A DNA stretch of 64,000 nucleotides from Dehalococcoidia bacterium (GCA_965232835.1 OZ247426.1:1628974-1692973); one strand, 5' to 3'. Positions 1-33,069 are shown, counted from the first letter of the stretch. Program-made: numbers and translations. Notes: generated from the letters alone by a model not told the origin.

Positions 1-861
1 GGCCAGTCGGCGTCGGTTTGGGGCAGTTTCCTGCAGGACCCGCAGAGCCAGCAGGGAGCGGACCATATCCAGGTCTGCGGCGGGGTCCCAGACGGGCCAG
101 GTAAAGAAGGCATCGCGGCTGCGATTTCCGGAGAACCCGGTGGTGATGGCCGTGCTGCGCACGGGCATTACCGGGAATAGGGGGAGTGCCTCAAAGGCCA
201 GGCGGTTGGCGCCCCACTCGGTCCTGGGTTGCTCGCCCGACGCCGTCGGGTCGCGCCACCTGTGGGCATAGCGGCGGTCGTCCTCCGGGTCCCAGCGCAG
301 CGACAGGCGGGAGTCGCCCCGTTTCCACGGAGCAAACAGACACTTACGGAGATGATCCCGGGTGGTTTTCTGCGCAAGGTCGCGCATGGATCTGAGGAAC
401 TGTGTCTGTCCGGCTCCCAGAGTGCGGAAGGCAGTTTCCTGAGTCTGCCCCTTCCGGTCGGCGGACTGGGCGGAGTCGCAGCCGAAGGCCGCGATGAAAT
501 CCGCCGCTGCCCGTGATTCGGGGGCCGAGTCCGCAGCTTCCGCAGCGCTCAGTGCGTGGCCGCGGAACGCATCCGCGGGGACCGGAAGGTTGTCTCCGAT
601 TTCCAGGGCGTCATGCCCCGGTCGCATCCTCAAGAAACTCTCCAGCCCGTCCAGCGCCTGTTCCTCAGTGGGTTGGCCGCCGGCGGCGTGCAGCATGGGA
701 CGCCAGGTATCCCGCAGGGTCCAGGAGAGGCTGACCGGACGATCCGGCCAGGTCAGTGTGAGACCCCGGAGTACCCCCAGGGCCGCCAGGAAGGCCAGCG
801 GGTTGGCCCCGTCCAGTCCTGGCATGAGCAGGCCGCCATGGGGATGTTCAAGTTCGGTCAT
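1..861 (-). CDS. Csx17/Cas8u-like large subunit of a type I-G (I-U) CRISPR-Cas effector, N-terminal 287 codons; the gene runs off the window
   Basis: Not in the ORF track because no stop lies inside the window. Manual translation of the minus strand from ATG 861..859 is open for all 287 codons down to position 1: MTELEHPHGGLLMPGLDGANPLAFLAALGVLRGLTLTWPDRPVSLSW... The start overlaps the cas3 stop at 858..860 (ATGA). The G-x-NPLA-x-L-x-ALGVLR N-terminus and the position next to cas3 fit Csx17/Cas8u. Confidence 0.55.
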   Translation of the reverse strand, partial: MTELEHPHGGLLMPGLDGANPLAFLAALGVLRGLTLTWPDRPVSLSWTLRDTWRPMLHAAGGQPTEEQALDGLESFLRMRPGHDALEIGDNLPVPADAFRGHALSAAEAADSAPESRAAADFIAAFGCDSAQSADRKGQTQETAFRTLGAGQTQFLRSMRDLAQKTTRDHLRKCLFAPWKRGDSRLSLRWDPEDDRRYAHRWRDPTASGEQPRTEWGANRLAFEALPLFPVMPVRSTAITTGFSGNRSRDAFFTWPVWDPAADLDMVRSLLALRVLQETAPNRRRLA

Positions 862-3800
862 GCTCCCTCTCCTGACTGCTTGTCACGGGTTTTCTGCTCG
901 TCTTCGCTGCAGCGGTGGTCGGCCAGACGCATCAGCGCCTCCAGCCAAGCGAGGCCCCACCACCCGTACCGGCGGACCAGCCGCCAGAAGCGTTCCGGCA
1001 CGCCGCTGTCCAGCCGTTCGAGCCCGGTGGCGCTGCAGGCCGACATGTGATGGCCAAAGGTTGCGTGTTCCACGTGGACCGGTTCATCGTCCGACACCAC
1101 CGGAGCGAAGGGGCGGCAGAACCCGTGGTGGCTGGCCACCAGGTGAAGCACCAGTTCTGGGTCGTGGGCCGACCGCAGCATACCGGGGACGCTCTCAATC
1201 AGCCGGACGGAGAGGAGCTCGTGTCGGCCTGCCACGGGATACCCGCTCTCCCGGCGGGCACGCCGTACTTCTCCCCGGCCGGTGGGCAGGGCGTCAGATT
1301 TTGCGAGGAGCAAACCGGCGGTCCGGGCCGTCCACGGATTGCCGCCGTAGAGCATGGCCTGGAACCTGGGGTCTGATTTGCCCACATCGTGCAGACGGGC
1401 GGCAAGAGCCAGATCATCAGTCAGGAAAGCCGGGAGGCCGGCTCCCGCTGCGAAGTTCCTGGTCCACTCTTCAACGCCATGCAGGTGATCTTCCAAGGGC
1501 ACCCGCACCGTGGCCGAATAGGAATCGTCCTCGCTGGTGGGAGTTGAGGCCGAGACCAGGTACTGCTGTACACGGCGGGATCCCTGTAGCACGAAACCCG
1601 CACCGGTCTCCTCATCATCGCGACCGGGATAGGGAGTCACCCTGGGACGGCGACGGCTACCGTATTCCCCGGCCAGGGCGTGGGCTGCGTCCTTCAGCCA
1701 CTGCCATTGGGGTGCGGCGTCAATTTCCGAAGCCAGCCTTTCGAAGGCTGCCGGGATTTCCGACTCCAGTTCCTCCCAGTCCTCGGAGGAGGCCCGGGTC
1801 CGGGCAGCCTTTTCGAAGAACGTCCGCGCCGGCACTTCCGGCCATTGTGCCACCGTTCGGGAGTGGATGCGCAGGAGCGGTTTGGCCTTGGCCTGAAGGT
1901 GGGCTCGGTCCCCGAGGTCGATGACCGGCTCGCCGTTGTCGGGGCCTGGTGGTATGTGCCCGAAGACCTCGAAGCCCCCCTGATCAGCGGGAATTACGAC
2001 GGTATCGCCGGGGCGCAGGTCTCTGAGTTCCGTTTGACCGACGATAAGATAGCTCTCTTCCGGTCCGCGCCAGCACAGGACCTTGCGTCGGACCTGGCGG
2101 TCATTCCTCGGATCTCCTTCGGTGGGAGCAGGGTTGCCCTCCAGGTCGCTGTCGTCGACACTGGAGTTGATCCCGGATCCTTCGAACCAGCGACGAAGGA
2201 CGTGAATGGGCGTCGCGATGCACTCCGAGGATACGGGCGGGCAGAGGCTCACGACGTCGACCTGCCGGCCTTCGTTCATGTCTCCCTGTAGATCGGCCCG
2301 CCAGCAGACCTGCGCCTCCGGCGCGCCGCGGTGTGGGCCGTGCAGAAACAGGGAAATTTCCGGATCAGGCGACGGTGCGGGCGAGGTCTGCACCCAGGCG
2401 TCGACGTGGGCCGGCAGCATCACTGGGGCGTCCGCCGCCCGCTGCCGCAGCCTGTCCAGCTCCTCCGGATCATCGGGAAGGGTCTCGTCCATGGCGGCGT
2501 ATCCGAAGTCGAACCAGCCCCCATCGGCTCTCTCCTTGAGCCACTGCCACGTCTCCGCCAGGGCCGTGCCGTAAATTGGATCGTCACCCGTTCTGGTCTT
2601 GGGATCGGTCTGGTCAGCCCGAACGACGATTGTGGCCCGCGCTTCTACGTTGTCCCGCCCACCCCGGTTCAAGCGTCCGAAGCGTTGCCGCAGGGCGTCG
2701 AGACTGGCGCACTCGGTGACCAGGCCGTCGAAGTCCAGGTCTGCGCCAACCTCCAGGCACTGTGTGGCGACGACGAAACGTGGAAGTCCATTCCCTGGGT
2801 CCGGTTCTGCCGGATGGCCCTTCGCGGGCTGCGACACCACCTTCTGCCGGGATCCGGTCTTCAGGGACTCGAGATGCCGTACAGTGTCGTCCCGGTCAAG
2901 TGCCCTCATCCGTCCGGTGAGCAGGATGGCGTCCTGTCCGGCAGCGGCCAACCGTTTATGGACCAGGCGCGCCGTGGCAACCCTGTTGACCATTATCCCT
3001 ATGGCCCGGCGCTGGTCATTCACCAGCTTTACGGCTTCCTCCGCGATCCGCACAGACAGGTGCTGCAGTACGTCATCGCCTCTGGTGTCCCCGGCAACGA
3101 CCAGGCTGGTCGGCTTGGCAGCCTTTATGCGGAGGCCCAGGACCGGGTGGTTGTAGTCTTCGGCCGCGGCGGTGAAGGTTCCACTGACGCCCGGTGGGGG
3201 GGTGGCTGACACCAGTGTCAGGTGGAAGGGAACGCTGCCGGGCTGTAGAGCCCAACTGCGATACCGCTGCACTGCGGTCACAGTCTGGCGGAAGGGATTG
3301 GCGCAGTGGGCTTCGTCCAGGAATACCAGTGCATCGTTGGCGGCAAGCCCGGCATGTACGGGCCGCATGCCAGTGCTGGTCCCGTAGCCGCGGAACAACA
3401 GCCTGGAGGCGAACTGGTCAACCGTGGTGACAACCACGGTGGGCTGAAGGGGCGACCGGGCCCAGGCGTCATCGCGGTACATCCCGCCGCGGAGTTGAAA
3501 GCACGCCAGTGGAGGCTCGTCGGGGCTGGGATCCCCGGCCAGCAGCCGCAGCCGGCCAGCCACCTCCTCCAGGATTCCGCCCTGGGCTTGATGCAATTGA
3601 CGCGCCAGTTCCCGGGACCGCTCGAAGGTGGCATCGACTATCACGCGGCGGTCCACCACGAAGAATATGCGGCGGGGAGCTGTGCGATCAGCCGGGAGAA
3701 GGTCAGCCTGGCAGGCCAGGGCGAAGACCGCCATGTCAATGCAGGCGGTCTTGCCGGCTGACGTGGGCAGCGCCAGTGCCTCCGGCCAGGGGGCGACGCC

Positions 3801-3911
3801 CCCTCGAGCATCTGCGACCCGGCGGGCCAGCCGTTCCTGCCAGGGGAATGGTCCATATCCGTATAGGGCCTGGAAGAAATCGGCAAACTGTCCTGAAGTC
3901 AACTCGCTCAT
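858..3911 (-). CDS. cas3: Cas3 helicase-nuclease, type I-U/I-G layout (helicase N-terminal, HD domain C-terminal)
   Basis: ORF track 858..3932. Walker A PTSAGKTA, DEAH box FLDEAH, a helicase C region, and C-terminal HD motifs (LHDVGKSDPRFQ, VASHHG). The ATG at 3911 overlaps the csb2 stop (TAATG) and is preferred over the track start at 3932. Confidence 0.85.
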   Translation of the reverse strand: MSELTSGQFADFFQALYGYGPFPWQERLARRVADARGGVAPWPEALALPTSAGKTACIDMAVFALACQADLLPADRTAPRRIFFVVDRRVIVDATFERSRELARQLHQAQGGILEEVAGRLRLLAGDPSPDEPPLACFQLRGGMYRDDAWARSPLQPTVVVTTVDQFASRLLFRGYGTSTGMRPVHAGLAANDALVFLDEAHCANPFRQTVTAVQRYRSWALQPGSVPFHLTLVSATPPPGVSGTFTAAAEDYNHPVLGLRIKAAKPTSLVVAGDTRGDDVLQHLSVRIAEEAVKLVNDQRRAIGIMVNRVATARLVHKRLAAAGQDAILLTGRMRALDRDDTVRHLESLKTGSRQKVVSQPAKGHPAEPDPGNGLPRFVVATQCLEVGADLDFDGLVTECASLDALRQRFGRLNRGGRDNVEARATIVVRADQTDPKTRTGDDPIYGTALAETWQWLKERADGGWFDFGYAAMDETLPDDPEELDRLRQRAADAPVMLPAHVDAWVQTSPAPSPDPEISLFLHGPHRGAPEAQVCWRADLQGDMNEGRQVDVVSLCPPVSSECIATPIHVLRRWFEGSGINSSVDDSDLEGNPAPTEGDPRNDRQVRRKVLCWRGPEESYLIVGQTELRDLRPGDTVVIPADQGGFEVFGHIPPGPDNGEPVIDLGDRAHLQAKAKPLLRIHSRTVAQWPEVPARTFFEKAARTRASSEDWEELESEIPAAFERLASEIDAAPQWQWLKDAAHALAGEYGSRRRPRVTPYPGRDDEETGAGFVLQGSRRVQQYLVSASTPTSEDDSYSATVRVPLEDHLHGVEEWTRNFAAGAGLPAFLTDDLALAARLHDVGKSDPRFQAMLYGGNPWTARTAGLLLAKSDALPTGRGEVRRARRESGYPVAGRHELLSVRLIESVPGMLRSAHDPELVLHLVASHHGFCRPFAPVVSDDEPVHVEHATFGHHMSACSATGLERLDSGVPERFWRLVRRYGWWGLAWLEALMRLADHRCSEDEQKTRDKQSGEGA

Positions 3912-5370
3912 TACGGGTAGCCCCCTTCCCACCGGAGTGGCCGAAACATCCCATAGCCCCGGTAACGGCCAGCCCCCAGGATGACCGGGCCGGCCACCGG
4001 CTCGGCGAAGGTGACCACCGCATGCAGATGCTGCAGCCGTCCGTTGTCGGGCTTGCGGCGTATGCAGGGGAACGACCGGCTGTGGGGAACGCCCAGATGC
4101 AGGCTCACCTGACTGAGCATCACGTCCAGGGGGCGTGGCAGGCCAATCCTATCGCAGGCTTCCTCCACCATTCGGACTGCCTTGCCCTCTTGGTCGGGGG
4201 CCTTGGGATGGCGGTCGAAGGCGATGGGGGTAACCGTGGCCCACCTGCGGGCGGGGCCAGTCCATGTCCGGGCCTGCAGGGCGGCCGTTGGCGAGTGCCC
4301 CTCATCCATCTGCAGACGCCAGTCGAAGTTGGCTCCGTCGTAGACATGGACTTGGCGTGGGGATCCGTCTGTTTCTAAGCCCAGGACCGGGTTGAGGCAC
4401 CGACCCACTTCGGCCTGCTCAACGTGCCTCGGTACGGCCAGGGCGAAGCCAAGCAGGTGGCCGTCGGCGTGTTGACTGCCGACAAAAGGTAGGGGCAGAT
4501 AGGCGAGATGGGGCATCTGGGAGGGCCAACCGTCCCCGGTATGGCCACTGACCCATTCCGGGACCGGTTCGGGGCAGTGCTTGACCACCGCGTTGCGCAA
4601 TTTCTCGCCGAGCATCAATGTGCTTTCCAGGCCCATCCTCCTTCCCTGTACCCGTCTCAGCGCCAGCAGGCGTTCGTGAAAGACGCCGTGAGGCGTCGGC
4701 GGCGGGTTTTCCGGTTGTGGCGGCGAGTAGGCGACCCACCGTGATCGCTCGGGTCTACGATTGCTCTGGTGCTGGGCCGTCAGGTGATCCAGCCGGCCGG
4801 GACCGGATACCCGCAGCGGACGCTGGGCCACTCCTTCATCCGGTACCAGGTCGGGCTGGGGTGGGGCGTCTTCCACCCAGGCCTGGACCAGAGAAGCCGA
4901 GTGCCCCACCCGGATTACCTTGCTGCAGAGGGACTCCAGTCCACTCCGAACCCCGGACGGAGGGTCGGATGGCCAAGCCAGGTACACCGTGGGGTCCCGA
5001 GGAATGGCCACCGGAAACTGCCGGGCCTGCCGGGAGCGGTTCTCAGGAAGAAGTTGCAGTCCGGCGCGAACCTGCTGAGCCGAAGGTGTCCTGCCTGCCC
5101 TGCGATTGAGGGTGGGAGAGTCATTGACCGGAACGTAAGTGGTCACCGTCTCTCGTCGCGTTGCTTCGCTGGCGTGGATACTGGGAGCTCCCTCCTGTTC
5201 CAGCCACAGTAAAGCCTCCATTTCCGTGTCGTCGCCATTGGTCTCGAAATGGGCGTCGGCCAGTGCCATGAAGATGCGGTCCGGATGGGGCGGCCACTCG
5301 GGGCGGTTCCGGTCGGCGGAGTCGGTGGCCATTGACCACCCGGTAAGGTAGCGTATGCCGATGGCAATCA

Positions 5371-5371
<1 letters not shown>
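3911..5371 (-). CDS. csb2: Csb2 (Cas5-Cas6 fusion, GSU0054 family)
   Basis: 486-aa ORF. The N-terminus MIAIGIRYLTGWSMATD...EWPPHPDRIFMALADAH resembles Csb2. The GTG start overlaps the csb1 stop (TAGTG), and the gene sits between csb1 and cas3. Confidence 0.75.
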
Positions 5372-6567
<1,196 letters not shown>

Positions 6568-6607
6568 GGCGTCAATCCTCCATTTGTTAGAATCGGTTTC
6601 GGCAGCA

Positions 6608-6784
6608 TCAGGCTGTGCGGGTGTGTGGCAGTAATCTAGGACGAACGCCGCCCGTTCTCAGGAATTTGACATGGGCTATGAGGGCGTCCAGATCCGTGCA
6701 GGACATCCGACCGGAAGCAGCGGCTTTCAGCAACAGTTCGTCGGCGACATCGTTCGTGGGAGGATGGGGAGGGGGCGGGTTCAT
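6608..6784 (-). CDS. small hypothetical protein (58 aa), first ORF of the cas operon
   Basis: Below the track cutoff, so translated manually: MNPPPPHPPTNDVADELLLKAAASGRMSCTDLDALIAHVKFLRTGGVRPRLLPHTRTA. It ends 41 nt before the csb1 start and is preceded by an AT-rich promoter-like region. No homology recognised. Confidence 0.3.
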   Translation of the reverse strand: MNPPPPHPPTNDVADELLLKAAASGRMSCTDLDALIAHVKFLRTGGVRPRLLPHTRTA

Positions 6785-6795
6785 TGTTCAACTTC

Positions 6796-6860
6796 TTGCT
6801 ACCCATTGCTACCCAACAAATCTACAAGTATTATAATAAATTCCTATGAACTGATTTCAA
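6796..6860 (-). promoter_or_regulatory. candidate sigma70-type promoter plus tandem 10-bp operator-like repeat upstream of the cas operon
   Basis: On the minus strand, TTGAAA (6860..6855) is followed after 19 nt by TATAAT (6835..6830). A perfect tandem TTGCTACCCA x2 (6796..6815) lies between this promoter and the ATG at 6784. This is the only AT-rich stretch upstream of the operon. Confidence 0.35.
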
Positions 6861-7564
6861 TCTATATGATACCCACGACTCATGTCAACCTCGCTGTAGT
6901 ACTATATGCCTCAATGTCGTCTTAGCATTTCCGCTGCGGCCCAATTGAAGGATAGGCATTTAGTATTAGACGCACAGTTCCTAGTGCGTTTCCATCGCCG
7001 AAAGGCGGTGGCCCCATTGGCGATCAGTCTCAGAGCACACCTTGCCTTGGAAAGGCGCTCGACAAAAATATTCCTGCTCGCTCCGCTTTGGCAGCGGTGC
7101 CGGCGCACTTGGGGATTCTGTTTAGTGGCCCTAAAATTCGCGGGGCACACCCGCATTCCCCACGGTAAAGGCGTTCATTGGGATTTCGGTGAATTTCGCC
7201 ACTTCTTTGCCATGATCACACATTGTGTTCGGGGTTAGGCCGAGAAGAAAATCTCGGAAATGGGAACCTCATCGTCATTCTTCTCGCGCCCGATTAGCTC
7301 CGCTGGTAAATGTAGGCTTATGCCATATGCTGGGACTGAGGTGGAGTTCATTATTCGGACAGGCTGGGAGGCTGGATTGCGCAAGGTCGAGTTTACCTTG
7401 ATCATTAAACGACCTCACAACCCCATCCACATCTCAAATACGGTACTGCCTACCGTCAAGTCAGGCCCACCAAACTGGATAAAATCAAGAACTTTTCACA
7501 TCAGATTCCCGGTGAAGGTGTAACTGGGCCGTTTCTCCGACTACACCCGAAGGAAGATGCTGCC

Positions 7565-7597
7565 AGCCCCTGTCTTGTGAACAGGGGCTTTCCTTTG
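7565..7597 (+). terminator. intrinsic terminator-like hairpin
   Basis: Stem AGCCCCTGT, loop cttgtga, stem ACAGGGGCT, followed by TTCCTTTGG. Confidence 0.45.
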
Positions 7598-7635
7598 GTG
7601 ATTCTGGTGCCTGATCTTGCCGAATTGGCAACTTA

Positions 7636-8720
7636 TTGCTGGGGTTGCGGCTATATGAGACGCCTTTCGACATTTCCCACTCCTTCCCGACAGCAACAGG
7701 CTCCTTTGGTTTAGAGGCAGAACTCTCACATAGCCACCTTTACGAAATTCCGGGTCCACCTCAGGAGCAACCCACCTTTGCCGAATTGGAATACCAGGGG
7801 AAGAAGCGCAAGACCCGTCGGGAGCTGTTCCTGGAGCGGATGGACGGACTGATTCCCTGGCGGAATCTGGAGGAGCGCATCTGGCCCTGCTACCCCCAAG
7901 CCGGCGGGGCCGCTATCCCTACCCATTGCCGGTGATGCTGCGCATACACTGCGTGCAGCTGTTCTACAACCTCAGTGACCCGGGCATGGAGGACTTGCTC
8001 TACGAGTCCGACCCGGTGCGGCGGTTCGTGGGGCTGAAGCTCACCGGCCCCCTGCCCGACGAGACCACCATCCTCCACTTCCGCCACCTGCTGGAGAAGC
8101 ACAACCTGGGGCAGGGCTTCCTGGAGGAGATCAACGCCCACCTGGAAAGCCAGGGGCTGAAGCTCAGGGAGGGAACCATCGTGGACGCCACCATCATTGA
8201 AGCGCCGTCATCCACCAAGAACCGGAACCAGGCGCGGGACCCAGAGATGCATCAGACCAGGAAGGGGAACCAGTGGCATTTCGGGATGAAGGCCCACATC
8301 GGCGTGGACTCGGATACCGGAATAGTCCACAGCATGAGCGCCACGGCGGCCAACGTCCATGACGTGACCGAGACGCGCCATCTGCTGCACGGGGGCGAGA
8401 AGGTGGTGTGGGGAGACGCTGGGTATCAGGGAGTTCACAAGAGGGAGGAGAACCTGGGGTTGGATGAGGAATGGCGGGTGTCGATGCGGCCGGGGAGGCG
8501 GCAGAGGCTGGAACCGGATAGCGCTGTAGCGCTGGTGGAGAAGGCGAAGGCGTCGGTGCGAGCCAAAGTGGAACATCCCTTCCAGAGACTGAAGCGCCAG
8601 TTCGGGTATTGGAAAGTACGCTACCGGGGGCTGGCGAAGAACACGGAGCGGCTGGCCCTGCTCTTCGGGTTGGGCAACCTGTTGACATCGGAAGGACAAC
8701 TGAGAGAACTGAGGGGGTAG
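7636..8720 (+). pseudogene. IS5-family DDE transposase, frameshifted
   Basis: The N-terminal part (TFAELEYQGKKRKTRRELFLERMDGLIPW, ORF 7636..7935) and the catalytic part (YPYPLPVMLRIHCVQLFYNLSDPGMEDLLY...DAGYQG, ORF 7926..8720) lie in different frames. They meet in the G-run near 7905..7925, consistent with a 1-nt indel. There is no canonical start inside the element. Confidence 0.7.
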
Positions 8721-8924: not shown

Positions 8925-11900
8925 TCAGCTCACATATGATGCCGGCGGGCTGAGGTCTATGGTAATTGCGGCCGCCAGTGCGTCCCTACGGTCTTCGGGA
9001 ACCTCACGGAGGATGAATTCCAGCAGGTCATCCTGGCGGGGCTGGCCGAAAACCATGCGGTAAACCGTCAATGCTTTTCTCAATGAGTCGATACGCGCCG
9101 CATCCCGCGACAGGGGTAAAACCGGTGTGTAGCGCTGGATGCGGGCATCCCCCCCAGTAAAAACCCAGTGAGGAACTCGACCGCCATCATCCTCAAAATG
9201 TTTGTCGGCCAGGTCATAGGCCAAGGTCCAGGGACTTTGGGGTTGGCCGTGGGAGATGCCAAATCGGACTTGCTCTGAAACACGACGTCCAAGTTTCTGA
9301 GCAATGTTCTTACGAATCGCGTGGCCGTGGTAACGATGAACACGTCCCTCGCGTTGCTCCAGGTCCACGGGATTGGAGGGGAGGTTCCAATGGACCACTG
9401 CATGGCAGTATCTGTGGAAGTCCAGACCTTCCTGACCTACTGACGTGGTGGCCAGCACGAAAGGCCAGAAGGGAGAGTTAAACGCGCCGCGTACGGCATC
9501 CACGTGTTCTCCCGCCTGAGGGTCGTAGCTTGTCGTGCGGTCATTTGCATAGCGGCGGGCAAAGTGCTGGCGCATGGGATATGTTTGCCTTTGTAGTCCG
9601 GAATTCCCTGAGGCCCATTCAACAACATCCAAACGTCCTGTCGCCAGTTGCAGCGCCTCGCATAACGCTGCAACCAGTTCCGAGCCGCCAGCCTCTCCTC
9701 TAGCTTCAAGCGTTACGTGAAAGAATTCGTCCAGAACGCCTGACAACCCGCCTTCCGCGCAATAAGCAAGCACCCGTTGCAAGTATGTAGACGTATTGAC
9801 CGGTATGAAAGGACTGTACAGGTTCTGCAATAAACCCTCGGACGTGGGAGACCGGAAGAAAGACCGAAACGCCCACGCCGCCCGTATAGCCTCCTGTTTC
9901 AGGTCATTGCTGGTGGTAGGCGTCCGCGTAACCCTCGAAAGTGCTCGTAACGATGCGTTGGCCGCCGAACTCAGCGCCAACAGCGCCAGCCTCTCCACCA
10001 GATCGTCGGGAGGCCTCCCCAGCGTTGACGGGTTGATCCGTGCATCGGCCAGACGACCAGAGACGTTGGATACCAGATCTCTCCATACCGAATGGTCTGC
10101 ATCATCGACATCGCTCGAGCGTTGTCTTCTCCCGGAGTATTCCACCAGCCACCGCAAGGAGTCCGGAGAAGCACTCTCCAAGAGGAGCGGAGCAACCGCG
10201 TACCATATGTTTTGAGATTGGCCAAAGGTGGGCGCGTTTCTGGTCAACGCATCAACCCGGGGTCGCAACCGCCCCGCGATGGCATCCAGTAGTTGGTCAA
10301 TACCGCCATGCGGGTACCGATATGGTTCGCCAGCTTCGGCCAACACTGCGGTTGGGACCAGCCAGGCGAACAGGGCGTAAGCATCCCGGGTCGCGGCCAA
10401 TCCGCGGGGTACGTACTGATCGGCCCTCACCTGATCAGGGATGTACCGGCGTTCAGCGTCATAACTTGCCAACACCGACACCGCCCTGGGAACCATAGTC
10501 CACGACGAGAAAACCAGCCGTTTGGTCACGGCGCTTGCCCGCGCAAAATCCGGTCCGAGTTCATGCCCAGCAAGCAACGGGGGCAACCAGAGCAAACTAT
10601 GGAAGCCACAATCCTGAAGATCGTTCAAGATTGTACGCATCCGCCCGTTGCCGCCGCCTACCTCAGAGCGCTCTGCAGTGGAACGTCGGGGCAATTGCAA
10701 TCCTGCCCCACTTTCAATCAGCTGCGCTACCTCTCCGCGTGGTGTGTTCGAAACGGCCCTCTGAACATGGTCCGCGAGGCGATACTGCTCCATGAAGGAG
10801 AGCAGGTACGGTGTGGATTTCCAGTATTCCATGATCCCTGGCGAGTTGGTGGCGGCAGCAATGTCCCGCGCGCTTAAATAAGCTTCTACGTCGCTGGTCT
10901 CCAGTTCCACCGCCAATTCCTTGGTCGCCAACATTGGGTCTCCGACTAAGTCTGCACTACGTCGCTCTGTCCGGGACATGACGCGGCTTAGCTCCTGCTG
11001 AATCCGATCCCGATGGACTGTGAGCCGATTGGTTGCATCTATGCCAAAATTTCCTGATCCCGCCACCCGGGGCAGCTCTGAACGAAACTGGCGCAACGCT
11101 TCCTCTAAAGGTTCCACGGACTCCTCGGGTCCCTGGAGGAAATCAACGGTGTCCAGGAAGTCCCTGTAGTGGTCGTCGTCCAGTTCGTGGCTGGCCGTGT
11201 ACATCTTGTAAGGCGTAGCGGAGAGCAGCATCGTACGCACTTTCGTGTGACTGTCTTCATACTCAAACAGGTGCTGCGCCAGTTCGCCGCTCTCGGTCGT
11301 TGGGCTAAGGAGCTCCCTGAATCTTTGAAACTCGTCCAAAATGACTAGGTCAGGCTCCAGAGCGTTCAGGCAGGACTCTGCCAAGAGCCTCCGTAGCGAA
11401 GACACAAAGTAGCGACGATGGGCCAGTATTTCTCCTGTCCGCCTCCCGCGAAGCTCCTCGCTCAGTACCAAGAACTCATTCCAAAGCTTGCCCCCACTGT
11501 CGCCTACCGCCTCAGCGAATCGCCGCATGATCCCGGCGTCGATTGGACGGGACGGTATCCAGCTTTCGTATTGGCGGAATCGCTCGACGGAGCTGATGCC
11601 ACCCAGAAACACCAGGCGGCGGTCCCGAACAATGTCTCCCCAAATCTGGCAAAGCATCCGGAACAGAATGATCCGTTCTTCGGCGATGCCCTCAGCGGAT
11701 GAGGAGTTGAATGACGTGCCCGGCGTCAGCGCGATCAGGTTAACCGGATTTTCCAGCGTCCTCAACCTGTAAGGCAGCAGGGTGATCCGAGAGGCCAGGG
11801 GTTCCGTCTCAATGCCCAAGAGCTGTTTGATGCGGTTGACATTCTGCCGCGCTATGGCCTGATTGGAACAGATATAGATGATGTCCACCCGGGGAGTGTT

Positions 11901-12110
11901 GATCGCCCTGAGGTGCTCCACCGCCAGACTGATCAGTCCGGCCGCCACAAGCGTTTTGCCAAGTCCCACCTCGTCCGCGATCAGGAAACGGCGAGTGCTG
12001 TCCGGAGCCTGGTACAGCCGTTGAAAGGCGTATTCCGCAGTCCGTTTCTGGAAATCTCTCAGCCTGCCCAGCACAGCCGAAGCCGAAACCAGGGTTCCTT
12101 GGTCCGTCAT
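8925..12110 (-). CDS. SNF2/DEAD-like superfamily-2 helicase (about 1061 aa), third gene of a defence-type operon
   Basis: Motif I ADEVGLGKT, motif II LDEFQRF, motifs V-VI QEGLDFH...WNLPSNPVDLEQREGRVHRYHGH. The ATG at 12110 overlaps the PLD gene stop (ATGA). The track start at 12146 is an alternative. Confidence 0.85.
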   Translation of the reverse strand: MTDQGTLVSASAVLGRLRDFQKRTAEYAFQRLYQAPDSTRRFLIADEVGLGKTLVAAGLISLAVEHLRAINTPRVDIIYICSNQAIARQNVNRIKQLLGIETEPLASRITLLPYRLRTLENPVNLIALTPGTSFNSSSAEGIAEERIILFRMLCQIWGDIVRDRRLVFLGGISSVERFRQYESWIPSRPIDAGIMRRFAEAVGDSGGKLWNEFLVLSEELRGRRTGEILAHRRYFVSSLRRLLAESCLNALEPDLVILDEFQRFRELLSPTTESGELAQHLFEYEDSHTKVRTMLLSATPYKMYTASHELDDDHYRDFLDTVDFLQGPEESVEPLEEALRQFRSELPRVAGSGNFGIDATNRLTVHRDRIQQELSRVMSRTERRSADLVGDPMLATKELAVELETSDVEAYLSARDIAAATNSPGIMEYWKSTPYLLSFMEQYRLADHVQRAVSNTPRGEVAQLIESGAGLQLPRRSTAERSEVGGGNGRMRTILNDLQDCGFHSLLWLPPLLAGHELGPDFARASAVTKRLVFSSWTMVPRAVSVLASYDAERRYIPDQVRADQYVPRGLAATRDAYALFAWLVPTAVLAEAGEPYRYPHGGIDQLLDAIAGRLRPRVDALTRNAPTFGQSQNIWYAVAPLLLESASPDSLRWLVEYSGRRQRSSDVDDADHSVWRDLVSNVSGRLADARINPSTLGRPPDDLVERLALLALSSAANASLRALSRVTRTPTTSNDLKQEAIRAAWAFRSFFRSPTSEGLLQNLYSPFIPVNTSTYLQRVLAYCAEGGLSGVLDEFFHVTLEARGEAGGSELVAALCEALQLATGRLDVVEWASGNSGLQRQTYPMRQHFARRYANDRTTSYDPQAGEHVDAVRGAFNSPFWPFVLATTSVGQEGLDFHRYCHAVVHWNLPSNPVDLEQREGRVHRYHGHAIRKNIAQKLGRRVSEQVRFGISHGQPQSPWTLAYDLADKHFEDDGGRVPHWVFTGGDARIQRYTPVLPLSRDAARIDSLRKALTVYRMVFGQPRQDDLLEFILREVPEDRRDALAAAITIDLSPPASYVS

Positions 12111-13945
12111 CGTCTGGCTTCCCTCACTTTCCAAAGCGGCTCCCACACGGCGTCGAAATCCGCCCCAAGTAACTCGGCCCCTGCCTCGGTTTTCCGCAGT
12201 TCAGCCACCAGGGATGCCACTGCGTCCAACCGGTCCGGTCCACGGTGCAGGGTCTCAAGCATTCTCTCCATCAAACCCGGCGACGACAGGCTGGCGGCGA
12301 AATTCTTGCCAAAGTTTCCGAGGGACTGGTCGAATTCAGCAAATGTGAGGTCATCATCGGGCGACAGCAATAGCCAAAGCAATTGCATTAGTTGGGCTCG
12401 GTTGCTCAGCATACCGGCCAGCAACCGTGGGAGGCGGTCTTCAGGTAATCCGTTTAGTTCGATGGGTCTGACGAAGCGTTTGCGCGCGGACCTGCCATTC
12501 AGAGATGCCCGAATCTCTATGGCCAAAAAGCATGACAGCTCAGTGATCAACATTCCAGTAAATTCAGAACCATCTGCGAAAGGCTTGCTATGGGCGTCCG
12601 AGAGGGAAACCGGCCAGCAAGTTACGGTGCCGATAGCGGGTCCCAGGTGCACCGGTTCGGTGATTTCCAACCCTAAGACGTACCGATCTCCGTCTGCCTT
12701 AACCTGTCCCTTGACATCCACCCGCGCCAGGGAAGCGGCACCAGCCTCCATCGTAAGTTCAAGGTTGATGGCGTCCTCGTCCTCTGTAACCGTTCCCAGG
12801 TCCGACTTGTCGAAGGGTTCGATCAAGCTGCGAAAAGTCCCTGCATCGCTGTCCTTGCCGGGATTGAGGAATGTGTCTATGCCGAACTTGCTCTTCCTTC
12901 CCGACAACTCCACCATAAATTCGACATTGCACGGAACCCTGCCCATGGCTGCGGACGTAGAATTACCCGACCCTACAACCAGCCTTACATTCCAGCCGTC
13001 GTCGATTACGAACACCTTTGCATGCAGCCCGCCCAGCGGAGCCAGGTCCGCCTCCCCATCTTCTGGCTCCAGTTCAAGCCCCGCTTTGAAAGAAAAGATT
13101 TCGGTGAAGCCAGATAGGGCGCCTCGGGGAGCGGTCAGCAAAGCGTCGCGCCTACTCACCAAGAATGATTGGGGACGCCTCTCTGCCATAGACCGCAGGA
13201 ACTCCCCTCCCAGGAACGGAGAGACCACCAGAATTGGCCGACTTTTGAGGTCGGGGAAATCGGGGTTGACGCTGCCCAAGCCGAATGACCAGAAGCGTTC
13301 GATCTCAAGACCTTTGGGGGGATGAAACCTTACACGTTGCAGCTCATCTGCGCAGAGTTCTACGAGTTCTCGTTGGGAGCCCGACATGGGCCGGCAAGCC
13401 AACCCAGGAAGCAAGCGGAAGAAGTCCGACAGCGGCCTGTTTTGCGAAAAACCCCTAACCCGGTGCTCCATTAGTTCGCCATCGAGTACGAGCGAAGTGT
13501 CCCAAGAAGCATCGAAAGTAAGGTTGCGTGACTGGCAAACCAGACGGTACCGCGCGGGCTGCTCCTCCGCTAAATAGCGCAACGCCCATACCTTTGGATG
13601 GAACACCGCCTGAGTTTCATCCACCCTTGGCGGTAGCGCGGTTACCACGGACTGTTCCAGGAACGCCAAAGCGGGTTGGCGGGTTCGTGGCACCGATGTC
13701 TGTCCACCGTGGCAAAAAAGTACGATGCGCCCAGCGTGTCGCCGGGCACTCTCCAAAAGAGCCAGCGGGTCTGAAGCCAATTGGCCGTTACGGTCTTGGG
13801 CATCCGCGAATGTGAACGCCAGGGGTACCGACAGCAACGCCAACAGGTCCAGGGTGTAAGTTGTGCCTACGGCTAGATCGAAGGTATATCCTTCGGGAGG
13901 GCGAAGGGATTCCAGGAAGAGCCGACGATTCCCGGGTTCGAGCAT
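12107..13945 (-). CDS. phospholipase-D-family nuclease with two HKD motifs
   Basis: First motif FHPKVWALRY; second motif LHAKVFVIDDGWNVRLVVGSGNSTSAAMG (the HxK..D..GSxN signature). The ATG at 13945 (MLEPGNRRLF) lies 5 nt after the upstream gene's stop. Confidence 0.85.
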   Translation of the reverse strand: MLEPGNRRLFLESLRPPEGYTFDLAVGTTYTLDLLALLSVPLAFTFADAQDRNGQLASDPLALLESARRHAGRIVLFCHGGQTSVPRTRQPALAFLEQSVVTALPPRVDETQAVFHPKVWALRYLAEEQPARYRLVCQSRNLTFDASWDTSLVLDGELMEHRVRGFSQNRPLSDFFRLLPGLACRPMSGSQRELVELCADELQRVRFHPPKGLEIERFWSFGLGSVNPDFPDLKSRPILVVSPFLGGEFLRSMAERRPQSFLVSRRDALLTAPRGALSGFTEIFSFKAGLELEPEDGEADLAPLGGLHAKVFVIDDGWNVRLVVGSGNSTSAAMGRVPCNVEFMVELSGRKSKFGIDTFLNPGKDSDAGTFRSLIEPFDKSDLGTVTEDEDAINLELTMEAGAASLARVDVKGQVKADGDRYVLGLEITEPVHLGPAIGTVTCWPVSLSDAHSKPFADGSEFTGMLITELSCFLAIEIRASLNGRSARKRFVRPIELNGLPEDRLPRLLAGMLSNRAQLMQLLWLLLSPDDDLTFAEFDQSLGNFGKNFAASLSSPGLMERMLETLHRGPDRLDAVASLVAELRKTEAGAELLGADFDAVWEPLWKVREARR

Positions 13946-13950
13946 TGGGC

Positions 13951-15186
13951 CTACTCTAGGGGTTCCAGGATGTCGGCCGCTATCCGCTGCACCTGGGACC
14001 ATCTGAAATTAAGGCGACCGGAAGCGGGATAGCCGCGACGAATGTCCCTAGCATCGTCATAGGTTAAACGGGCCCGTCTTCCCTTCAACGCAAGCTCCCG
14101 TTCACGCAGGAGTCGTTGGACACCGGCCTGTAGTTCGCGCTCCAATCGAAGCCGAGTCATATCCATCACTAATGCGTACCAGCGGTCTGCGAACGCAATT
14201 GTGGCCGTCCGAAGCCGGGGGTTGGCACTCCGTAGGCGCCGCCACATTGCGGCCCGGTCCCACTGTGCCAGGTGGTCCCGGTACTCTTGAACCTCCGCCA
14301 GCCAATTGGCCAAGTCGGCGGTGAATGCACTGATATATCCATCGTCCTCCAACGCTTCAGCCAGCATCACGTTGTACAGGATTGCCGCTCCCTGGTGAAC
14401 CAAAGAGAACAAAGCTGCATCGTCAAGCCATGCCGCCAGCGCTGGCGGGGCTGAGCTCGCCGAAAAATGCTCCCATGGGTAATTCGCTTCCCAAATAGTA
14501 CTAACATCCCCTTCGCGAAATATGTGAGCCAAGAAAGATTGCGGGTGCTTGAGCTCAATGCAGTCCCGAAGGAAACGTCCTTCCTCCTGGGTCAAGTCGA
14601 AAGAGGCCTTCTCAGGAAAGTCTCCGGGAATCGGAGGCAGCGCCGCCCACCGTCCCGGCACTTCATCGGCAGACTCGTACTGCCGGTCTTCAACGGGATC
14701 TGCGGGTGCCCAAGTTGCCCTCATTAAGGCGGTTGGCCGTCGCTGAGTCGGTCCGGATTTTGCGGTGGCTGCGGATTCTTTGCGGATTCCCCACCGTTCG
14801 AGGCCCACCCAATAGATTTGGCTCGGCCAACGGCGCAGCGATGCTCTTGCCTGCCTTCCGATGACCCCGGCGCCCGCGCCGTGGGATTTGTCCAGTGCTT
14901 CGCAAAGTCGCAACTCTAGCTGCCTCGCCAGGCGGTTAGAATTTGTCTCCGCCGTGGCTTCGACCATCTGCAAGATCCATGGTATAAACAGAAAATATCG
15001 AGCGCGGGTCTGGATAGTGCTCGTACCAGGGAAAAGGGTATCCGCGATGGTGTCTCGGATACTGCCGATGCCAAGTTCGTCGAGAGTCCCCGGCTCGTTT
15101 AGCGCGGAAACTAACTCCATTACTGCCCGGCGCTCGCTCTCACTACTGTCCAGCCAGCTGAGTGTCGAGTTGAATGTGGAAGTCAT
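13951..15186 (-). CDS. DUF6361-like protein, first gene of the PLD/helicase operon
   Basis: 411-aa ORF. The N-terminus LSWLDSSESERRAVMELVSALNEPGTLDELGIGSIRDTIADTLFPGTSTIQTRARYFLFIPW matches my recollection of the DUF6361 family, which is usually found with PLD and helicase genes. Confidence 0.6.
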   Translation of the reverse strand: MTSTFNSTLSWLDSSESERRAVMELVSALNEPGTLDELGIGSIRDTIADTLFPGTSTIQTRARYFLFIPWILQMVEATAETNSNRLARQLELRLCEALDKSHGAGAGVIGRQARASLRRWPSQIYWVGLERWGIRKESAATAKSGPTQRRPTALMRATWAPADPVEDRQYESADEVPGRWAALPPIPGDFPEKASFDLTQEEGRFLRDCIELKHPQSFLAHIFREGDVSTIWEANYPWEHFSASSAPPALAAWLDDAALFSLVHQGAAILYNVMLAEALEDDGYISAFTADLANWLAEVQEYRDHLAQWDRAAMWRRLRSANPRLRTATIAFADRWYALVMDMTRLRLERELQAGVQRLLRERELALKGRRARLTYDDARDIRRGYPASGRLNFRWSQVQRIAADILEPLE

Positions 15187-15299: not shown

Positions 15300-16223
15300 C
15301 TAAACCAAACCCAAGGTGGGATGTGCATTTGCCTGAGGTGAGGAATCGTGCTGTGAATTTAGCTGGAGTGCCTGGGCCCTTGACTGCAATACCGTCCGGC
15401 AACGCCGTCTCACCGCGTCCTTCCGGTTGGCCAGACCAGCCAGGAAGTTGCCGACCCTCTCCTGCACCGCTTCCCTGGTCCCCAAGCAGAGATTGCCGGT
15501 GGGCTCCTCTCCCGCCCAGCCCCAGATGGCCTCATCGGCATTGAAGTCCGGGCTGTAGCCCGGTAGATTAACCAACCGTAGGTCAAGTCCGGGCGTCCGC
15601 AGATATTCCCGCACCGCCTCGCCACGGTGGGCTGGCGCGTTGTCCCAGATGATCTTGGGCGGGCCAGGGTGTTTTCTCCGCAGTTGTTCCAGGAAGGTAA
15701 CCGAGGTCCCGCTGTTGCTGTTGCCCTCCAGTTCCATCCATTCCACCTCGCCCGTCTCCAGGCACACCGCCGAATAGTAGCTGGTCTTCTCCCCGTACCT
15801 CGGACTGTTGGAGTTCACCAACGACGGCTGGCCCTGCAGCACCCACTTGCCCCGAAGCTCCGCGTCCGACCGGAAGTGGGCCTCATCAGCGAAGAATATC
15901 CTGGCTTCAGCCTGCCCAGCATCCTCCCTCGGTGCGACGTACTCCGCAACGAAGGCCTCCCGCTTGGCTTCATCCGCCTTGAGCAACCGCTTCTTGGGCC
16001 GCTTGAAAGCAGACCCCAAGCGGTGCAGGTAATTCATGCAACTGCTGTGGCACAGGCTGATGCCGTACCGGTCCGCCGCAAACCGGTGCACCACTTTCCA
16101 ATTCCAATTGGCCAAGCCGATGCCCACGGCCTCAGGCAATTCTTGCACCGCCCCTTTCAGCGCCGCTTGTTGCGCTTCACCGAGGGCGGGGGGCTAACGG
16201 GGGTAGGTTTTTCGCGGCATGTT
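15300..16223 (-). pseudogene. IS630-family transposase remnant: DDE domain intact, N-terminal HTH region lost
   Basis: The 282-aa ORF carries IS630-type DDE region motifs (FFADEAHF, IIWDNAPAHRG, LPGYSPDFNADE). Upstream reads MPRKTYPR-stop-PPALGEAQQAALKGAVQELPEA, so about 90 aa of the usual HTH part are missing. Confidence 0.7.
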
Positions 16224-16433
16224 GATCACTTTGATTTCGTTCGCTGACTCAGACTATCGTTTGCAAACGTAACCACCCGGTTTTCGTTCAGTCTCAAAGC
16301 TGGAGGGAGGCGACACTTGATTCCTGTGCATCCACCTGTTTGGTGCTTGAACTTTAACTGGCACTCCCAATCAGGGGCCTGACGGGAGGCTTCTCTTGTT
16401 CACAGCCCAACACTCACGTATGGTCCGCTTTCA

Positions 16434-17189
16434 TCACTGAGTTAGACCCAGCTGCGCTTCCAGTTCCCGTATCCGCGCCTCGGCGGCTAACCGGGCGGCT
16501 CTCTCAGCGTCGGAACGTTCCTCAGCGGCATTAGCCCGGGCCCACTCGCTGTCGGCGCGGTCGCGCTCGCTCTCCAAACTGGCAATGGGCGCGCCGGTAG
16601 CAGGGTCGTGGAACACTAACTCGCCCTCCTCCCAGCGCAGATGCAGGTTCAGCGCCGGGCTGTACCCCTGCAACACCCCATCAGGCAATTCCTCTATCTC
16701 AACGGGTTCGTACTCGTCGCCCACCAGCCGGTCCCCGGCCAGCCGCGCCTCTGAACTCCGTCCCCTCTCGTCAAATCGCCAGTACTCGCCTATCCCCAAC
16801 CGGGCATAGTCGACACGCTTGTCCACCCGATCCGTGCGCCCGCTGCTGGGCGACACCACCTCCAGTATCCAGTCCGGAGGCTTGCCCTGCTCCGAGATCA
16901 CGTAGGCGTTGCTGGCCCGGTAGGCCTGCGGGTCCGCCCCAAAGGCCACCAGCAGGTCGGGGTAGCGCACTCCCGCCAGGTTGCGGGTGGGCGCCAGGGC
17001 CAGGTAATGCTCTCCCGCCACCAGCGTGGTCTCCGGACTCCCCAAGTGTTCGATGAGCAGGTAAACGTTGCCGTTGGCGGCCAGGCGGTCAAAGCTGGTC
17101 ATCTTGTCGTCCGGGTCTTCCGGCGGATCGGGAAACACGATATGCTTCTCAACCGGAAGCGATTTGGCGAAGGTCTCGGGTGTGCTCAT
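16434..17189 (-). CDS. Uma2-family (DUF820) PD-(D/E)xK endonuclease with C-terminal coiled-coil tail
   Basis: YPDLLVAFGADP...GKPPDWILEVVSPSS...DYARLGIGEYWRFDE, followed by an Ala/Glu/Arg-rich tail. It is a paralog of 28137..28940. Confidence 0.8.
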   Translation of the reverse strand: MSTPETFAKSLPVEKHIVFPDPPEDPDDKMTSFDRLAANGNVYLLIEHLGSPETTLVAGEHYLALAPTRNLAGVRYPDLLVAFGADPQAYRASNAYVISEQGKPPDWILEVVSPSSGRTDRVDKRVDYARLGIGEYWRFDERGRSSEARLAGDRLVGDEYEPVEIEELPDGVLQGYSPALNLHLRWEEGELVFHDPATGAPIASLESERDRADSEWARANAAEERSDAERAARLAAEARIRELEAQLGLTQ

Positions 17190-17435
17190 CTTGCACCTGG
17201 CGCTTGCGGGGGTTGGTAGCCCCGTTGCAACATCGCGGTTTGCCTCCGTTGAGAGGCTTCATGTCATTGTGGAGATTCTACGCCGCCGGCCAGCCGTCGG
17301 CAAGGGAAACGGCGCGCGGGATGGTACCGGTCTGCGACAATTTCTGACCCTAAATGCGGATATTCAAACCCGGTCGTCTCAGGCGCTGATACCTGCCCGC
17401 TGACGGCGGCGTCATCCTGCTGCTACGCTCTTGGC

Positions 17436-17908
17436 ATGGTCCTCTCACGGGAACGTATCCTGGACGCCCCGGCCCAGCGGGTGAGCCACGGCACGGACCA
17501 ATTGCCCTCCAGCCACCGCTATTACCTCGCGAAAAAGGGCATCGCCGCAGGCTCCGGCGCCCTGGGCTTCGACGCGCAGTCGGAGTTCGCGCGGGCCCAT
17601 CCCGTGTCGCGGCAATGTCTGACCCTGCTGCTGCGCCGCCTGGACGCCAGGGCTTCGGTGTACGGCCAGGCGTCCACCCTCTCCCCCGGCGTGGACAGCC
17701 TGGAAACCCGTGTGGAGTTTCACCGCCGGGGCCGGTTGATGCGGTGATCACTCTCCACAATGGCCGCAGCTTCGGCGTGGCACGCCAGGGCCTTGACCAG
17801 CGGCGCCGCTCCCTCTACGACCAGTTGCGGGCCATCGCCGAGTACGGGTACCCGCGCCGCCCCGGCACGGTACTGGTCCTGACTCCAGCGTCTGGGAGCA
17901 GAGGTTGA
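17436..17908 (+). pseudogene. frameshifted fragment of a replication-relaxation-type gene (third copy)
   Basis: Two overlapping frames align to the middle of the 25.2-kb and 30.6-kb genes. HRYYLAKKGIAA...HPVSRQCLTLLLRRLDA corresponds to QRRYFPTDKGVTA...YPVSKQWFRLLSERLDA. ITLHNGRSFGVARQG...GTVLVLTPAS corresponds to ITLSGGRSLGIVRQG...TATLVITHSD. The DNA at 17395..17480 also matches 30296..30380. Confidence 0.6.
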
Positions 17909-18011
17909 CTACCTGGTAAGGACTGCTGCCCATCGGCGGTTTCGGGTTCCTCAACGTGGCCCTTGTCAACGTATCCTGTAGGCGAGAGCTGTTTGCTTGA
18001 CGGCGATCGGA

Positions 18012-18977: not shown

Positions 18978-19000
18978 GTCGCTTCCTCCGAAACGCAGAA

Positions 19001-19041
19001 AGCGGGGGCCGGTCTCGAATCGAACGAGACCGGCCCCCGCT
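19001..19041. terminator. strong GC-rich hairpin (17-bp perfect stem), likely a terminator or attenuator
   Basis: Stem AGCGGGGGCCGGTCTCG, loop aatcgaa, stem CGAGACCGGCCCCCGCT. On the minus strand it is followed by TTCTGCGTTT. It lies between the small ORF 19138..19347 and the HTH gene start. Confidence 0.55.
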
Positions 19042-19137
19042 TTGCTGTGAGCTGTGTATTTTCAGTCTTTGGTGCGGCTCACCTTGGGCCGCCGTTGGTT
19101 CACGCCGTCTCTCGCAGGAGAGAGGCGAGGCCTGGGG

Positions 19138-20761: not shown

Positions 20762-20888
20762 ACCTCGCCCGACAGCGAAAAGAAAGGGTTTGGGAGCCCC
20801 GGAGCCCAAAGTGTTCAATCCAGTTCATAAAAACTTATACAATAGTTACACAAAAATTTACTGATGCCGTCAGCGGCCCGCAGCGTCC

Positions 20889-21356: not shown

Positions 21357-21359
21357 TGC

Positions 21360-33060: not shown

Positions 33061-33069
33061 TGGTATAAT
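33061..33069 (+). promoter_or_regulatory. extended -10 promoter element for the RHH-recombinase operon
   Basis: TGGTATAAT (TGnTATAAT) lies 21 nt upstream of the AAGGAG RBS of the RHH gene. Confidence 0.4.

Follow-up and report, generated by a model that had tools for sequence, protein, structure and literature searches.

At the start of a 64,000-nucleotide stretch of DNA from a Dehalococcoidia bacterium (GCA_965232835.1 OZ247426.1:1628974-1692973; this whole stretch is referred to as the window) lies a CRISPR effector operon, assigned by its gene content to type I-G, formerly I-U. It is headed by a 58-amino-acid (aa) open reading frame (ORF), behind which follow cas7g, csb2, cas3g and a short cas8g. 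Upstream of the operon is a two-repeat mini-array, the single spacer of which partly matches the operon's own putative promoter. We consider it about 75% probable that positions 1-7023 represent the effector half of a normal I-G locus, belonging to the short-Cas8g variant and accompanied by the RNA-based element that controls it. The co-occurrence of the mini-array and the promoter match is strongly supported, through comparison of sequences between loci, as the signature of an autorepressor of the CreR type, resembling a CRISPR RNA (crRNA). The system most likely switches itself off through a guide to its own promoter.

The mini-array was found by reading the DNA upstream of the operon, and by scanning it with the array repeat of related loci. 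It consists of three parts:

6916-6951, plus strand: degenerate repeat psi-R1, identical to the array repeat at 20 of 36 positions
6952-6987, plus strand: 36-nucleotide (nt) spacer-like sequence ATAGGCATTTAGTATTAGACGCACAGTTCCTAGTGC, occurring once in the window
6988-7023, plus strand: near-intact repeat R2, GTTTCCATCGCCGAAAGGCGGTGGCCCCATTGGCGA, identical to the array repeat of the related locus L001 at 32 of 36 positions

This unit is divergent from the cas operon, 130-240 nt upstream of its first ORF, and retains what one crRNA needs, namely a 5' handle, a 36-nt spacer and a 3' hairpin, but little more. The 3' end of psi-R1 is GGCCCAATTGAAGG, which keeps the 8-nt crRNA 5' handle ATTGAAGG, and almost every one of the 14 aligned mini-array units (alignment A1) retains the handle ATTGAAG. 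The spacer differs from that of L001 at two of 36 positions. R2 differs from the L001 repeat at its first base and its last four bases, leaving the hairpin intact, and folding the window sequence to minimum free energy recovers this hairpin; across the aligned loci, the second repeat is decayed at its 3' end. The preliminary description of the window, made from its sequence, had reported the whole 64 kb to be free of CRISPR repeats, which these two repeats contradict. It had also described the DNA upstream of the operon as AT-rich and only non-coding. The composition was correct, with a GC content of 49% at 6785-7635 versus approximately 66% across the cas genes, but the mini-array sits within this region. 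Two ORFs overlying the mini-array (6906-7238 on the plus strand and 6911-7156 on the minus strand) were rejected as read-through translations of the repeats, rather than genes, and no Rfam family matched positions 6500-7700 at E<=1.

Degenerate repeat-spacer-repeat units of this kind stand beside the effector genes in at least 14 loci. A scan with the short Cas8g, in which each prokaryotic species was represented by one genome, identified 40 related loci, and the Cas8g proteins of those from Dehalococcoidia are 59-81% identical to that in the window. Within this class, L001-L008, L012, L014 and L015 have a mini-array of unchanged position and orientation; it is also present in L034 and L039, both from Verrucomicrobiota, and in the metagenomic loci L041, L043 and L045. 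In these relatives, it lies 150-450 nt upstream of cas7g.

The spacer's predicted target lies between the mini-array and the operon, among the following elements:

6888-6883 and 6866-6861, minus strand: promoter-like pair TTGACA and TATAGA, conserved in L001 and L002
6860-6855 and 6838-6833 or 6835-6830, minus strand: promoter-like pair TTGAAA and TATTAT or TATAAT, identified, like the pair above, by a promoter scan and direct reading
6812-6850, minus strand: predicted target of the crRNA-like RNA, comprising a TTC flank (6850-6848) and a 36-nt site (6847-6812)
6796-6815: perfect tandem of two copies of TTGCTACCCA in the 5' leader, between the target and the 58-aa ORF, detected by Tandem Repeats Finder

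The TTGAAA/TATAAT pair (6860-6830) and the 10-bp tandem had both been picked out in the preliminary description, and both are present. The TTGACA/TATAGA pair, just upstream, is the better conserved of the two. The target site begins four nucleotides downstream of TTGAAA, and covers both the TATTAT and TATAAT -10 hexamers. Pairing between spacer and target is confined to the part proximal to the protospacer-adjacent motif (PAM): positions 1-18 match at 14 of 18, with mismatches at positions 6, 12, 16 and 18, versus six of 18 at positions 19-36. An earlier guess at the target, beside the first repeat (6913-6878), was discarded once a systematic scan had pointed to 6847-6812, a better site that is conserved and has a PAM beside it. 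The tandem of TTGCTACCCA was likewise rejected as a conserved element: it is a duplication specific to this genome's leader, absent from L001 and L002, and the spacing from target to ATG is 27 nt in the window versus 3 nt in L001, which has no duplication. A further promoter-like pair on the plus strand, TTGCTA (6806-6811) and TATTAT (6829-6834), is itself under the target; that it drives the mini-array is speculation.

The same arrangement is evident across relatives. A recognisable target is present in the window and 11 other loci, and in all 12 the spacer matches at 12-17 of positions 1-18, whereas positions 19-36 match at three to six of 18, as expected by chance. The target is flanked by TTC, TTT, TTG or TTA in every case, and TTN is the published PAM of type I-G (PMC9638904). 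Targets are on the same strand and, in the Dehalococcoidia loci, at a fixed distance of approximately 220-290 nt from cas7g. In L003-L008, L014 and L015, a TTGACA-like -35 hexamer is paired with a TAnnnT -10 hexamer, at the last T of which the flank begins, and in most loci the first T of the target flank is this final T of the -10 hexamer. Over the 12 loci, the spacer and target pairs vary between lineages, and stay matched within each locus. The mismatches are not evenly distributed: 67% of the cells at positions 6, 12 and 18 are mismatched, versus 12% at the other positions from 1 to 17. A mismatch tolerated at every sixth base is the periodicity expected of a Cas7 backbone, as established for type I complexes. 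In type I-G, the complex contains seven Cas7 subunits (PMC9638904).

The repeats themselves also appear to be maintained as RNA. In the alignment of 14 mini-array units, pairing in the second-repeat hairpin reaches 99%, and five of its eight pairs show compensatory changes; for the first-repeat hairpin, the corresponding values are 76% and four of six. The observed covariation was reached by none of 500 shuffles, and registers slid along the alignment pair at approximately 30-47%. The compensatory changes therefore point to selection on an RNA, rather than to the decaying end of an array. This bears directly on the simplest alternative, namely that a rearrangement, or the insertion of an IS5-family element, left the two repeats as the decayed remains of an old array's end, with the promoter match arising by chance. 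The terminal repeats of arrays do often decay at their 3' ends, as R2 does, an IS5 transposase lies 600 nt away, and the proximal match in the window is just 14 of 18. Yet the two-repeat unit recurs with unchanged orientation and distance in at least 14 loci, the Cas8g proteins of which are no more than 59-81% identical to that in the window. Furthermore, the hairpin exhibits compensatory substitutions, and spacer and target co-vary, with every one of the 12 targets flanked by TTN and a six-nucleotide periodicity of mismatches. This explanation is disfavoured, to the point of being barely credible.

Under the autorepressor reading, we infer from these sequence features that the mini-array is transcribed on the plus strand, and that Csb2 would process the transcript into a crRNA-like RNA with the 5' handle ATTGAAGG and a 3' repeat hairpin. 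This RNA would be loaded into the complex of Cas7g, Csb2 and Cas8g, guiding it to the promoter. As pairing stops after approximately 18 nt, a full R-loop should not form, and Cas3g should not cut. The bound complex would instead block RNA polymerase, repressing the whole operon in a negative feedback loop that would ease once ordinary crRNAs, or anti-CRISPR proteins, occupied the complex.

Several observations weigh against this model. Firstly, the window's own match of 14 of 18 barely exceeds the best of 200 shuffled spacers (13), so the case for an autorepressor rests on the comparison across loci. Secondly, the promoters are consensus matches, in a phylum for which promoters are poorly known. 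Thirdly, the first repeat in both the window and L001 has lost the canonical hairpin register, and a one-base-shifted alternative hairpin is predicted; therefore 5' processing is not assured. Fourthly, four Dehalococcoidia loci (L009, L010, L011 and L013) are without a mini-array, which must therefore be dispensable. Finally, no demonstration of CreR-type repression is known for type I-G, the complex of which includes Cas3 as a stable subunit.

Other observations concern the mini-arrays and the DNA around them. Candidate mini-arrays upstream of cas7g in L029, L033, L037 and L038, which share the I-G variant of the window but belong to other phyla (Lysobacterales, Nitrospira, Latescibacterota and Cyanobacteriota), have a handle-like GGCCYCATTGAAG followed by a spacer-length gap, after which L033 has a recognisable second repeat hairpin. 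The genes annotated as 'SWIM' in two metagenomic loci (L041:3476-3973 and L042:3398-3973) are truncated upstream genes reading through the reverse-complemented mini-array (...AAFNGATAFRRWK...), making this annotation a trap that hides mini-arrays. The mini-array repeat was not found in viral contigs, giving no sign of phage mimics. Beyond the mini-array in the window, from 7024, the DNA is approximately 80% identical to L001 as far as 7312. A 61-nt segment at 7462-7522 shares 90% identity with L005:3598-3658; with respect to the cas operon, however, the two are oppositely oriented, so the segment may be a small mobile repeat.

The operon to which this control element is attached comprises five genes:

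6608-6784, minus strand: 58-aa ORF, heading the operon
5371-6567, minus strand: cas7g (csb1), backbone subunit, 398 aa
3911-5371, minus strand: csb2, Cas5-Cas6 fusion for crRNA processing, 486 aa
858-3932, minus strand: cas3g, N-terminal helicase and C-terminal HD nuclease, 1024 aa
1-861, minus strand: cas8g, short variant, cut by the window edge, with 287 of 314 codons visible

The first four calls, and their order, had been made in the preliminary description, and are upheld by the ORFs and by curated hidden Markov models. Cas7g matches TIGR02570 (70 bits, cutoff 38), PF09617 (181 bits) and the PADLOC Cas7g model (169 bits). Csb2, the signature gene of type I-G, matches TIGR02165 over model positions 1-491 of 492 (312 bits, cutoff 45) and the PADLOC Cas56g model (449 bits). 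The TIGR02570 and TIGR02165 matches thus bear out the Csb1 and Csb2 assignments. Cas3g matches TIGR02621 (742 bits, cutoff 400) and the PADLOC Cas3g model (806 bits); its cas3_core domain spans residues 294-444 and its cas3_HD domain residues 813-943, agreeing with the expected layout of a helicase followed by a C-terminal HD domain. The cas3g start is a GTG at 3932 or, more likely, an ATG at 3911. The 58-aa ORF is separated from cas7g by 40 nt, and the junctions after cas7g overlap as TAGTG, TAATG and ATGA, the last being that of cas3g and cas8g; all three, as previously noted, can be read directly in the sequence.

The final, truncated ORF had been described as csx17-like. No match to the Csx17 model of NCBIfam was found even at E<=10, and the protein falls short of the 600-700 aa of the Csx17/Cas8g1 family. 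Instead, its matches are to NF049934 (228 bits), named 'type I-G CRISPR-associated protein, Cas3-extension family', and to PDLC01514, the Cas8g model of PADLOC (255 bits). The full-length protein of the source genome, P0044 in the protein database, is identical to it over the portion in the window (100%) and is 314 aa in length, so only 27 cas8g codons lie beyond the window. An AlphaFold2 model of the short Cas8g, built with 60 homologues, had a predicted local distance difference test score (pLDDT) of 88 and a predicted template modelling score of 0.90. Its sole significant match in the Protein Data Bank (PDB) was to entry 8b2x, 'Structure of the type I-G CRISPR effector', in its chain of 649 aa, which we take to be Cas8g (E 7e-6, probability 1.00, 15% identity); the next, a chain of the type I-B Cascade entry 8h67, was weak. 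No PDB chain was matched by the sequence, or by a profile of 21 sequences. As the fold matches where the sequence does not, the modelled structure identifies the short Cas8g as distantly related to the large subunit of type I-G, at half the length. Three size variants of Cas8g have been reported (PMC9638904), with which a half-length form is compatible.

The gene order, cas7g-csb2-cas3g-short cas8g, had been called non-canonical. This is true only relative to the reference order of Geobacter and Thioalkalivibrio, cas3-cas8g-cas7-csb2 (PMC10482374); it is the regular order in 32 of the 40 related loci, spanning more than ten phyla. These include Chloroflexota (Dehalococcoidia), Planctomycetota, Latescibacterota, Acidobacteriota (Terriglobia), Verrucomicrobiota, Gamma- and Alphaproteobacteria, Nitrospirota (Nitrospira) and Cyanobacteriota, amongst others. 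Among the other eight, four are cut by contig ends, two have no match to cas7g or csb2, one is ordered cas3g-cas8g-cas7g-csb2, and one contains an inversion. The order csb1-csb2-cas3-hypothetical-cas1-cas2 has already been described in mycobacteria (PMC10333696). By this comparison of gene orders, the locus is an ordinary member of a widespread short-Cas8g variant of type I-G.

What follows cas8g in these relatives suggests what lies to the left of position 1. In L001 (81% identity), the genes after cas8g encode Cas4g/Cas1g (NF049935, 789 bits) and Cas2, and next comes an array in which the repeat CTTTCCATCGCCGAAAGGCGGTGGCCCCATTGAAGC occurs 44 times. The metagenomic L045 (84% identical) has cas4/cas1, cas2 and an array of 28 repeats. 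Among the 15 Dehalococcoidia loci, 13 have the short cas8g followed by cas4/cas1, cas2 and an array of 36-nt repeats within 2.5 kb, and all 15 have an array within 10 kb; the two exceptions are L010, which has an array without adaptation genes, and L011, which is rearranged. As 13 of 15 relatives are arranged in this way, cas4/cas1, cas2 and an array, expected to be of the repeat type GTTTCCATCGCCGAAAGGCGGTGGCCCCATTGAAGC, most likely lie within approximately 2.5 kb to the left of position 1.

It was correctly observed in the preliminary description that cas1, cas2 and cas4 are absent from the window: tblastn searches with the I-G Cas4/Cas1 and Cas2 found no homologue in the 64 kb, in which Tandem Repeats Finder also detected no CRISPR array. 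These absences, a flank rich in mobile elements that could have broken the locus, and the irregular L010 and L011 are what might be expected of an orphan interference module, without adaptation genes or array, repurposed beyond adaptive immunity and with the crRNA-like RNA as its sole guide. However, the operon runs off the window edge with just 27 codons of cas8g missing, L045 and 13 of the 15 Dehalococcoidia relatives continue into adaptation genes and an array within at most 2.5 kb, every Dehalococcoidia locus has an array within 10 kb, and Cas3g retains its helicase and HD model matches. By analogy with these relatives, an orphan module is improbable.

Rearrangements are found in individual relatives. 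In L011 (2913-4246 and 10955-11061), a cas2 remnant and a 13-repeat array directly upstream of cas7g replace the mini-array, and two repeats follow cas8g. The cas3g gene is interrupted by approximately 2 kb in L012 (5181-9923), cas4/cas1 by approximately 1.3 kb in L005 (11426-12755), and the csb2-cas3g segment is inverted in L039 (5750-9063).

The gene heading the operon, the 58-aa ORF, belongs to a family of 40 protein clusters, 48-73 aa in length, with no annotation and no Pfam domain; the one in the window has no match in NCBIfam, Pfam or PADLOC. The family shares the core D-x-L-L-x(3)-A-x-S-G-R-I-S-x(2)-D-L-D-x-L-x(2)-Y-V-x(2)-L-R, and its substitutions, distributed 652/397/895 over the three codon positions, are mostly at the third. 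Copies are present in the window, L001-L007, L014, L015 and L041-L046, and each of those examined lies between the target site and cas7g, immediately upstream of the latter. Hence this pattern of conservation, which had been proposed as a check, identifies the ORF as a real, conserved and unannotated gene, the first behind the promoter predicted to be repressed. The AlphaFold2 model is a two-helix hairpin (pLDDT 72), for which a fold search gave no meaningful structural match, such hairpins being uninformative. The copy in the window (start 6766-6778, minus strand) begins MNPPPPHPP, and that in L001 MNPPLAHPP; the polyproline run is not conserved in the family. The ORF is confined to Dehalococcoidia loci with a mini-array, is decayed in L008 and L010, and is absent from all loci outside Dehalococcoidia with the same short Cas8g. 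It is therefore an accessory rather than a core subunit, and its candidacy as a universal effector subunit was rejected.

Candidate roles for the encoded protein are those of CreP-like toxin, regulator and adaptor. The first of these would make the mini-array and 58-aa ORF a CRISPR-repressed toxin module of the CreTA or CrePA type, in which the crRNA-like RNA silences a toxic or growth-arresting protein, such that loss of the effector, or its inhibition by an anti-CRISPR, leads to growth arrest. This would be compatible with simultaneous autoregulation of the cas genes. No gene stands between the targeted promoter and the ORF, the PAM-distal part of the target includes the ORF's ribosome-binding site in several loci, the ORF's family is found only beside such mini-arrays in Dehalococcoidia I-G loci and not in other phyla, it has proved dispensable in L008 and L010, and protein toxins repressed by CreA have been described (10.1101/2024.01.05.574328, PMC12737573). 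Set against this conserved gene in the right place is a protein with none of the features of a known CreT or CreP: the sequence offers no hint of toxicity, as the predicted product is a soluble two-helix hairpin without a hydrophobic segment, and it has no family or structural match. It is apparently co-transcribed with the cas genes, 40 nt away, whereas known creT and creP genes have their own promoters, and the mini-arrays of L012, L034 and L039 have no such ORF beside them. We therefore regard a toxin module as unlikely, although less so than an orphan module. Equally tentative is the broader proposal that the family is a new CRISPR-controlled accessory, either a CreP-like factor for growth arrest or against anti-CRISPRs, or a partner replacing the Cas11-like half missing from the short Cas8g, forming with the mini-array an 'autoregulation plus safeguard' cassette of Dehalococcoidia I-G systems.

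The locus is bordered by one further feature, which is not part of the CRISPR system:

7636-7935 and 7926-8720, plus strand: IS5-family transposase, split over two frames (NF033581, 287 bits for 7926-8720)

The second segment covers positions 37-284 of the 285 in NF033581, with the N-terminal part in the other frame, and no terminal inverted repeats were found for this element. It had been described as a dead IS5: the family is correct, but there is a single frame break near 7926-7935, from which its death does not follow. The break may be an assembly error, since the contig names of relatives resemble those of long-read assemblies. Beyond it, on the minus strand at 8925-15186, PADLOC detected a three-gene Zac set: ZacA (13951-15186, 376 bits), ZacB (12107-14002, 516 bits) and, completing it, ZacC (8925-12146, 941 bits), a SNF2-like helicase. 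As these genes adjoin the CRISPR locus, the region forms a defence island. The genes from 15300 to 35008 suggest an integrated element or hypervariable region, and include an IS630-like DDE_3 transposase (15300-16148), a Uma2 nuclease (16434-17189), a helix-turn-helix protein (18012-18977), an IS110 transposase (21969-23324), a replication-relaxation protein (30582-32609) and a large serine recombinase (33314-35008). At 20384-20489, a 44-bp unit is perfectly repeated in tandem, with 2.4 copies (score 212), and a 2339-aa ORF on the minus strand (46957-53976), with several fibronectin type III and immunoglobulin-like domains, is probably a giant surface protein.

Hence a supposed oddity, a permuted and possibly orphaned I-G operon, turns out to be an ordinary locus. 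Its mini-array adds a well-supported candidate, judged by conservation between loci, for a natural example of RNA-guided cas autoregulation in type I-G, for which there had previously been only a passing bioinformatic mention. The co-varying pairs of spacer and promoter constitute a natural mutagenesis series. They indicate that, to bind without cutting, the I-G complex needs to pair over approximately 17-18 PAM-proximal nt, of which positions 6, 12 and 18 may be free, a rule useful for applying this compact four-protein system in the manner of CRISPR interference. The 58-aa family, in turn, is a testable candidate for a new CRISPR accessory.

Among the closest known systems is CreR, the degenerate mini-CRISPRs shown experimentally to autorepress cas operons of types I-B, I-E and V-A (Liu et al., 10.1101/2023.03.10.532045; reviewed in PMC12737573). 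Both have a degenerate repeat-spacer-repeat unit beside the effector genes, in both the pairing of the spacer with a PAM-flanked site at the cas promoter is limited to the PAM-proximal part, and neither has a separate toxin promoter. For types I-U and I-G, only creA-like elements from a manual search were mentioned (10.1101/2023.03.10.532045), and mini-arrays were counted in 4% of 235 I-G loci, but not discussed (Shmakov et al., PMC10120712). The system in the window differs in being type I-G, of the short-Cas8g variant and from Dehalococcoidia, where it is known from sequence, and in having a conserved 58-aa gene at the head of the transcript predicted to be repressed. It also differs in that Cas3 is a stable subunit of the I-G complex (PMC9638904), such that avoidance of self-cleavage may depend more on the short pairing. 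The CreTA and CrePA modules of the Haloarcula hispanica type I-B locus (10.1101/2024.01.05.574328) similarly direct a partly complementary crRNA-like RNA to the promoter of a small gene within a cas locus. Their toxins, however, are an RNA that sequesters a rare transfer RNA, or a phage-derived protein with its own promoter, whereas the small gene in the window shares its promoter with the cas genes.

The effector itself is comparable with the I-G systems of Thioalkalivibrio sulfidiphilus and Geobacter sulfurreducens (PMC9638904, PMC10482374), with which it shares Cas7g, the Csb2 fusion, a Cas3g with a C-terminal HD domain, a TTN PAM, and 36-nt repeats giving an 8-nt 5' handle. These differ in their order, cas3-cas8g-cas7-csb2, and in their Cas8g of 649 aa with a C-terminal Cas11-like domain, as opposed to the 314-aa protein of the window, which resembles it in fold only. 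Also comparable are the mycobacterial I-G loci (PMC10333696) and the NCBIfam family NF049934, with the same gene order and the same unnamed protein of approximately 310 aa after cas3; the paper on the mycobacterial system describes neither an upstream mini-array nor a small ORF. Rather than an aberrant relative of these systems, the window therefore appears to hold a regular I-G effector operon under the probable control of its own guide.

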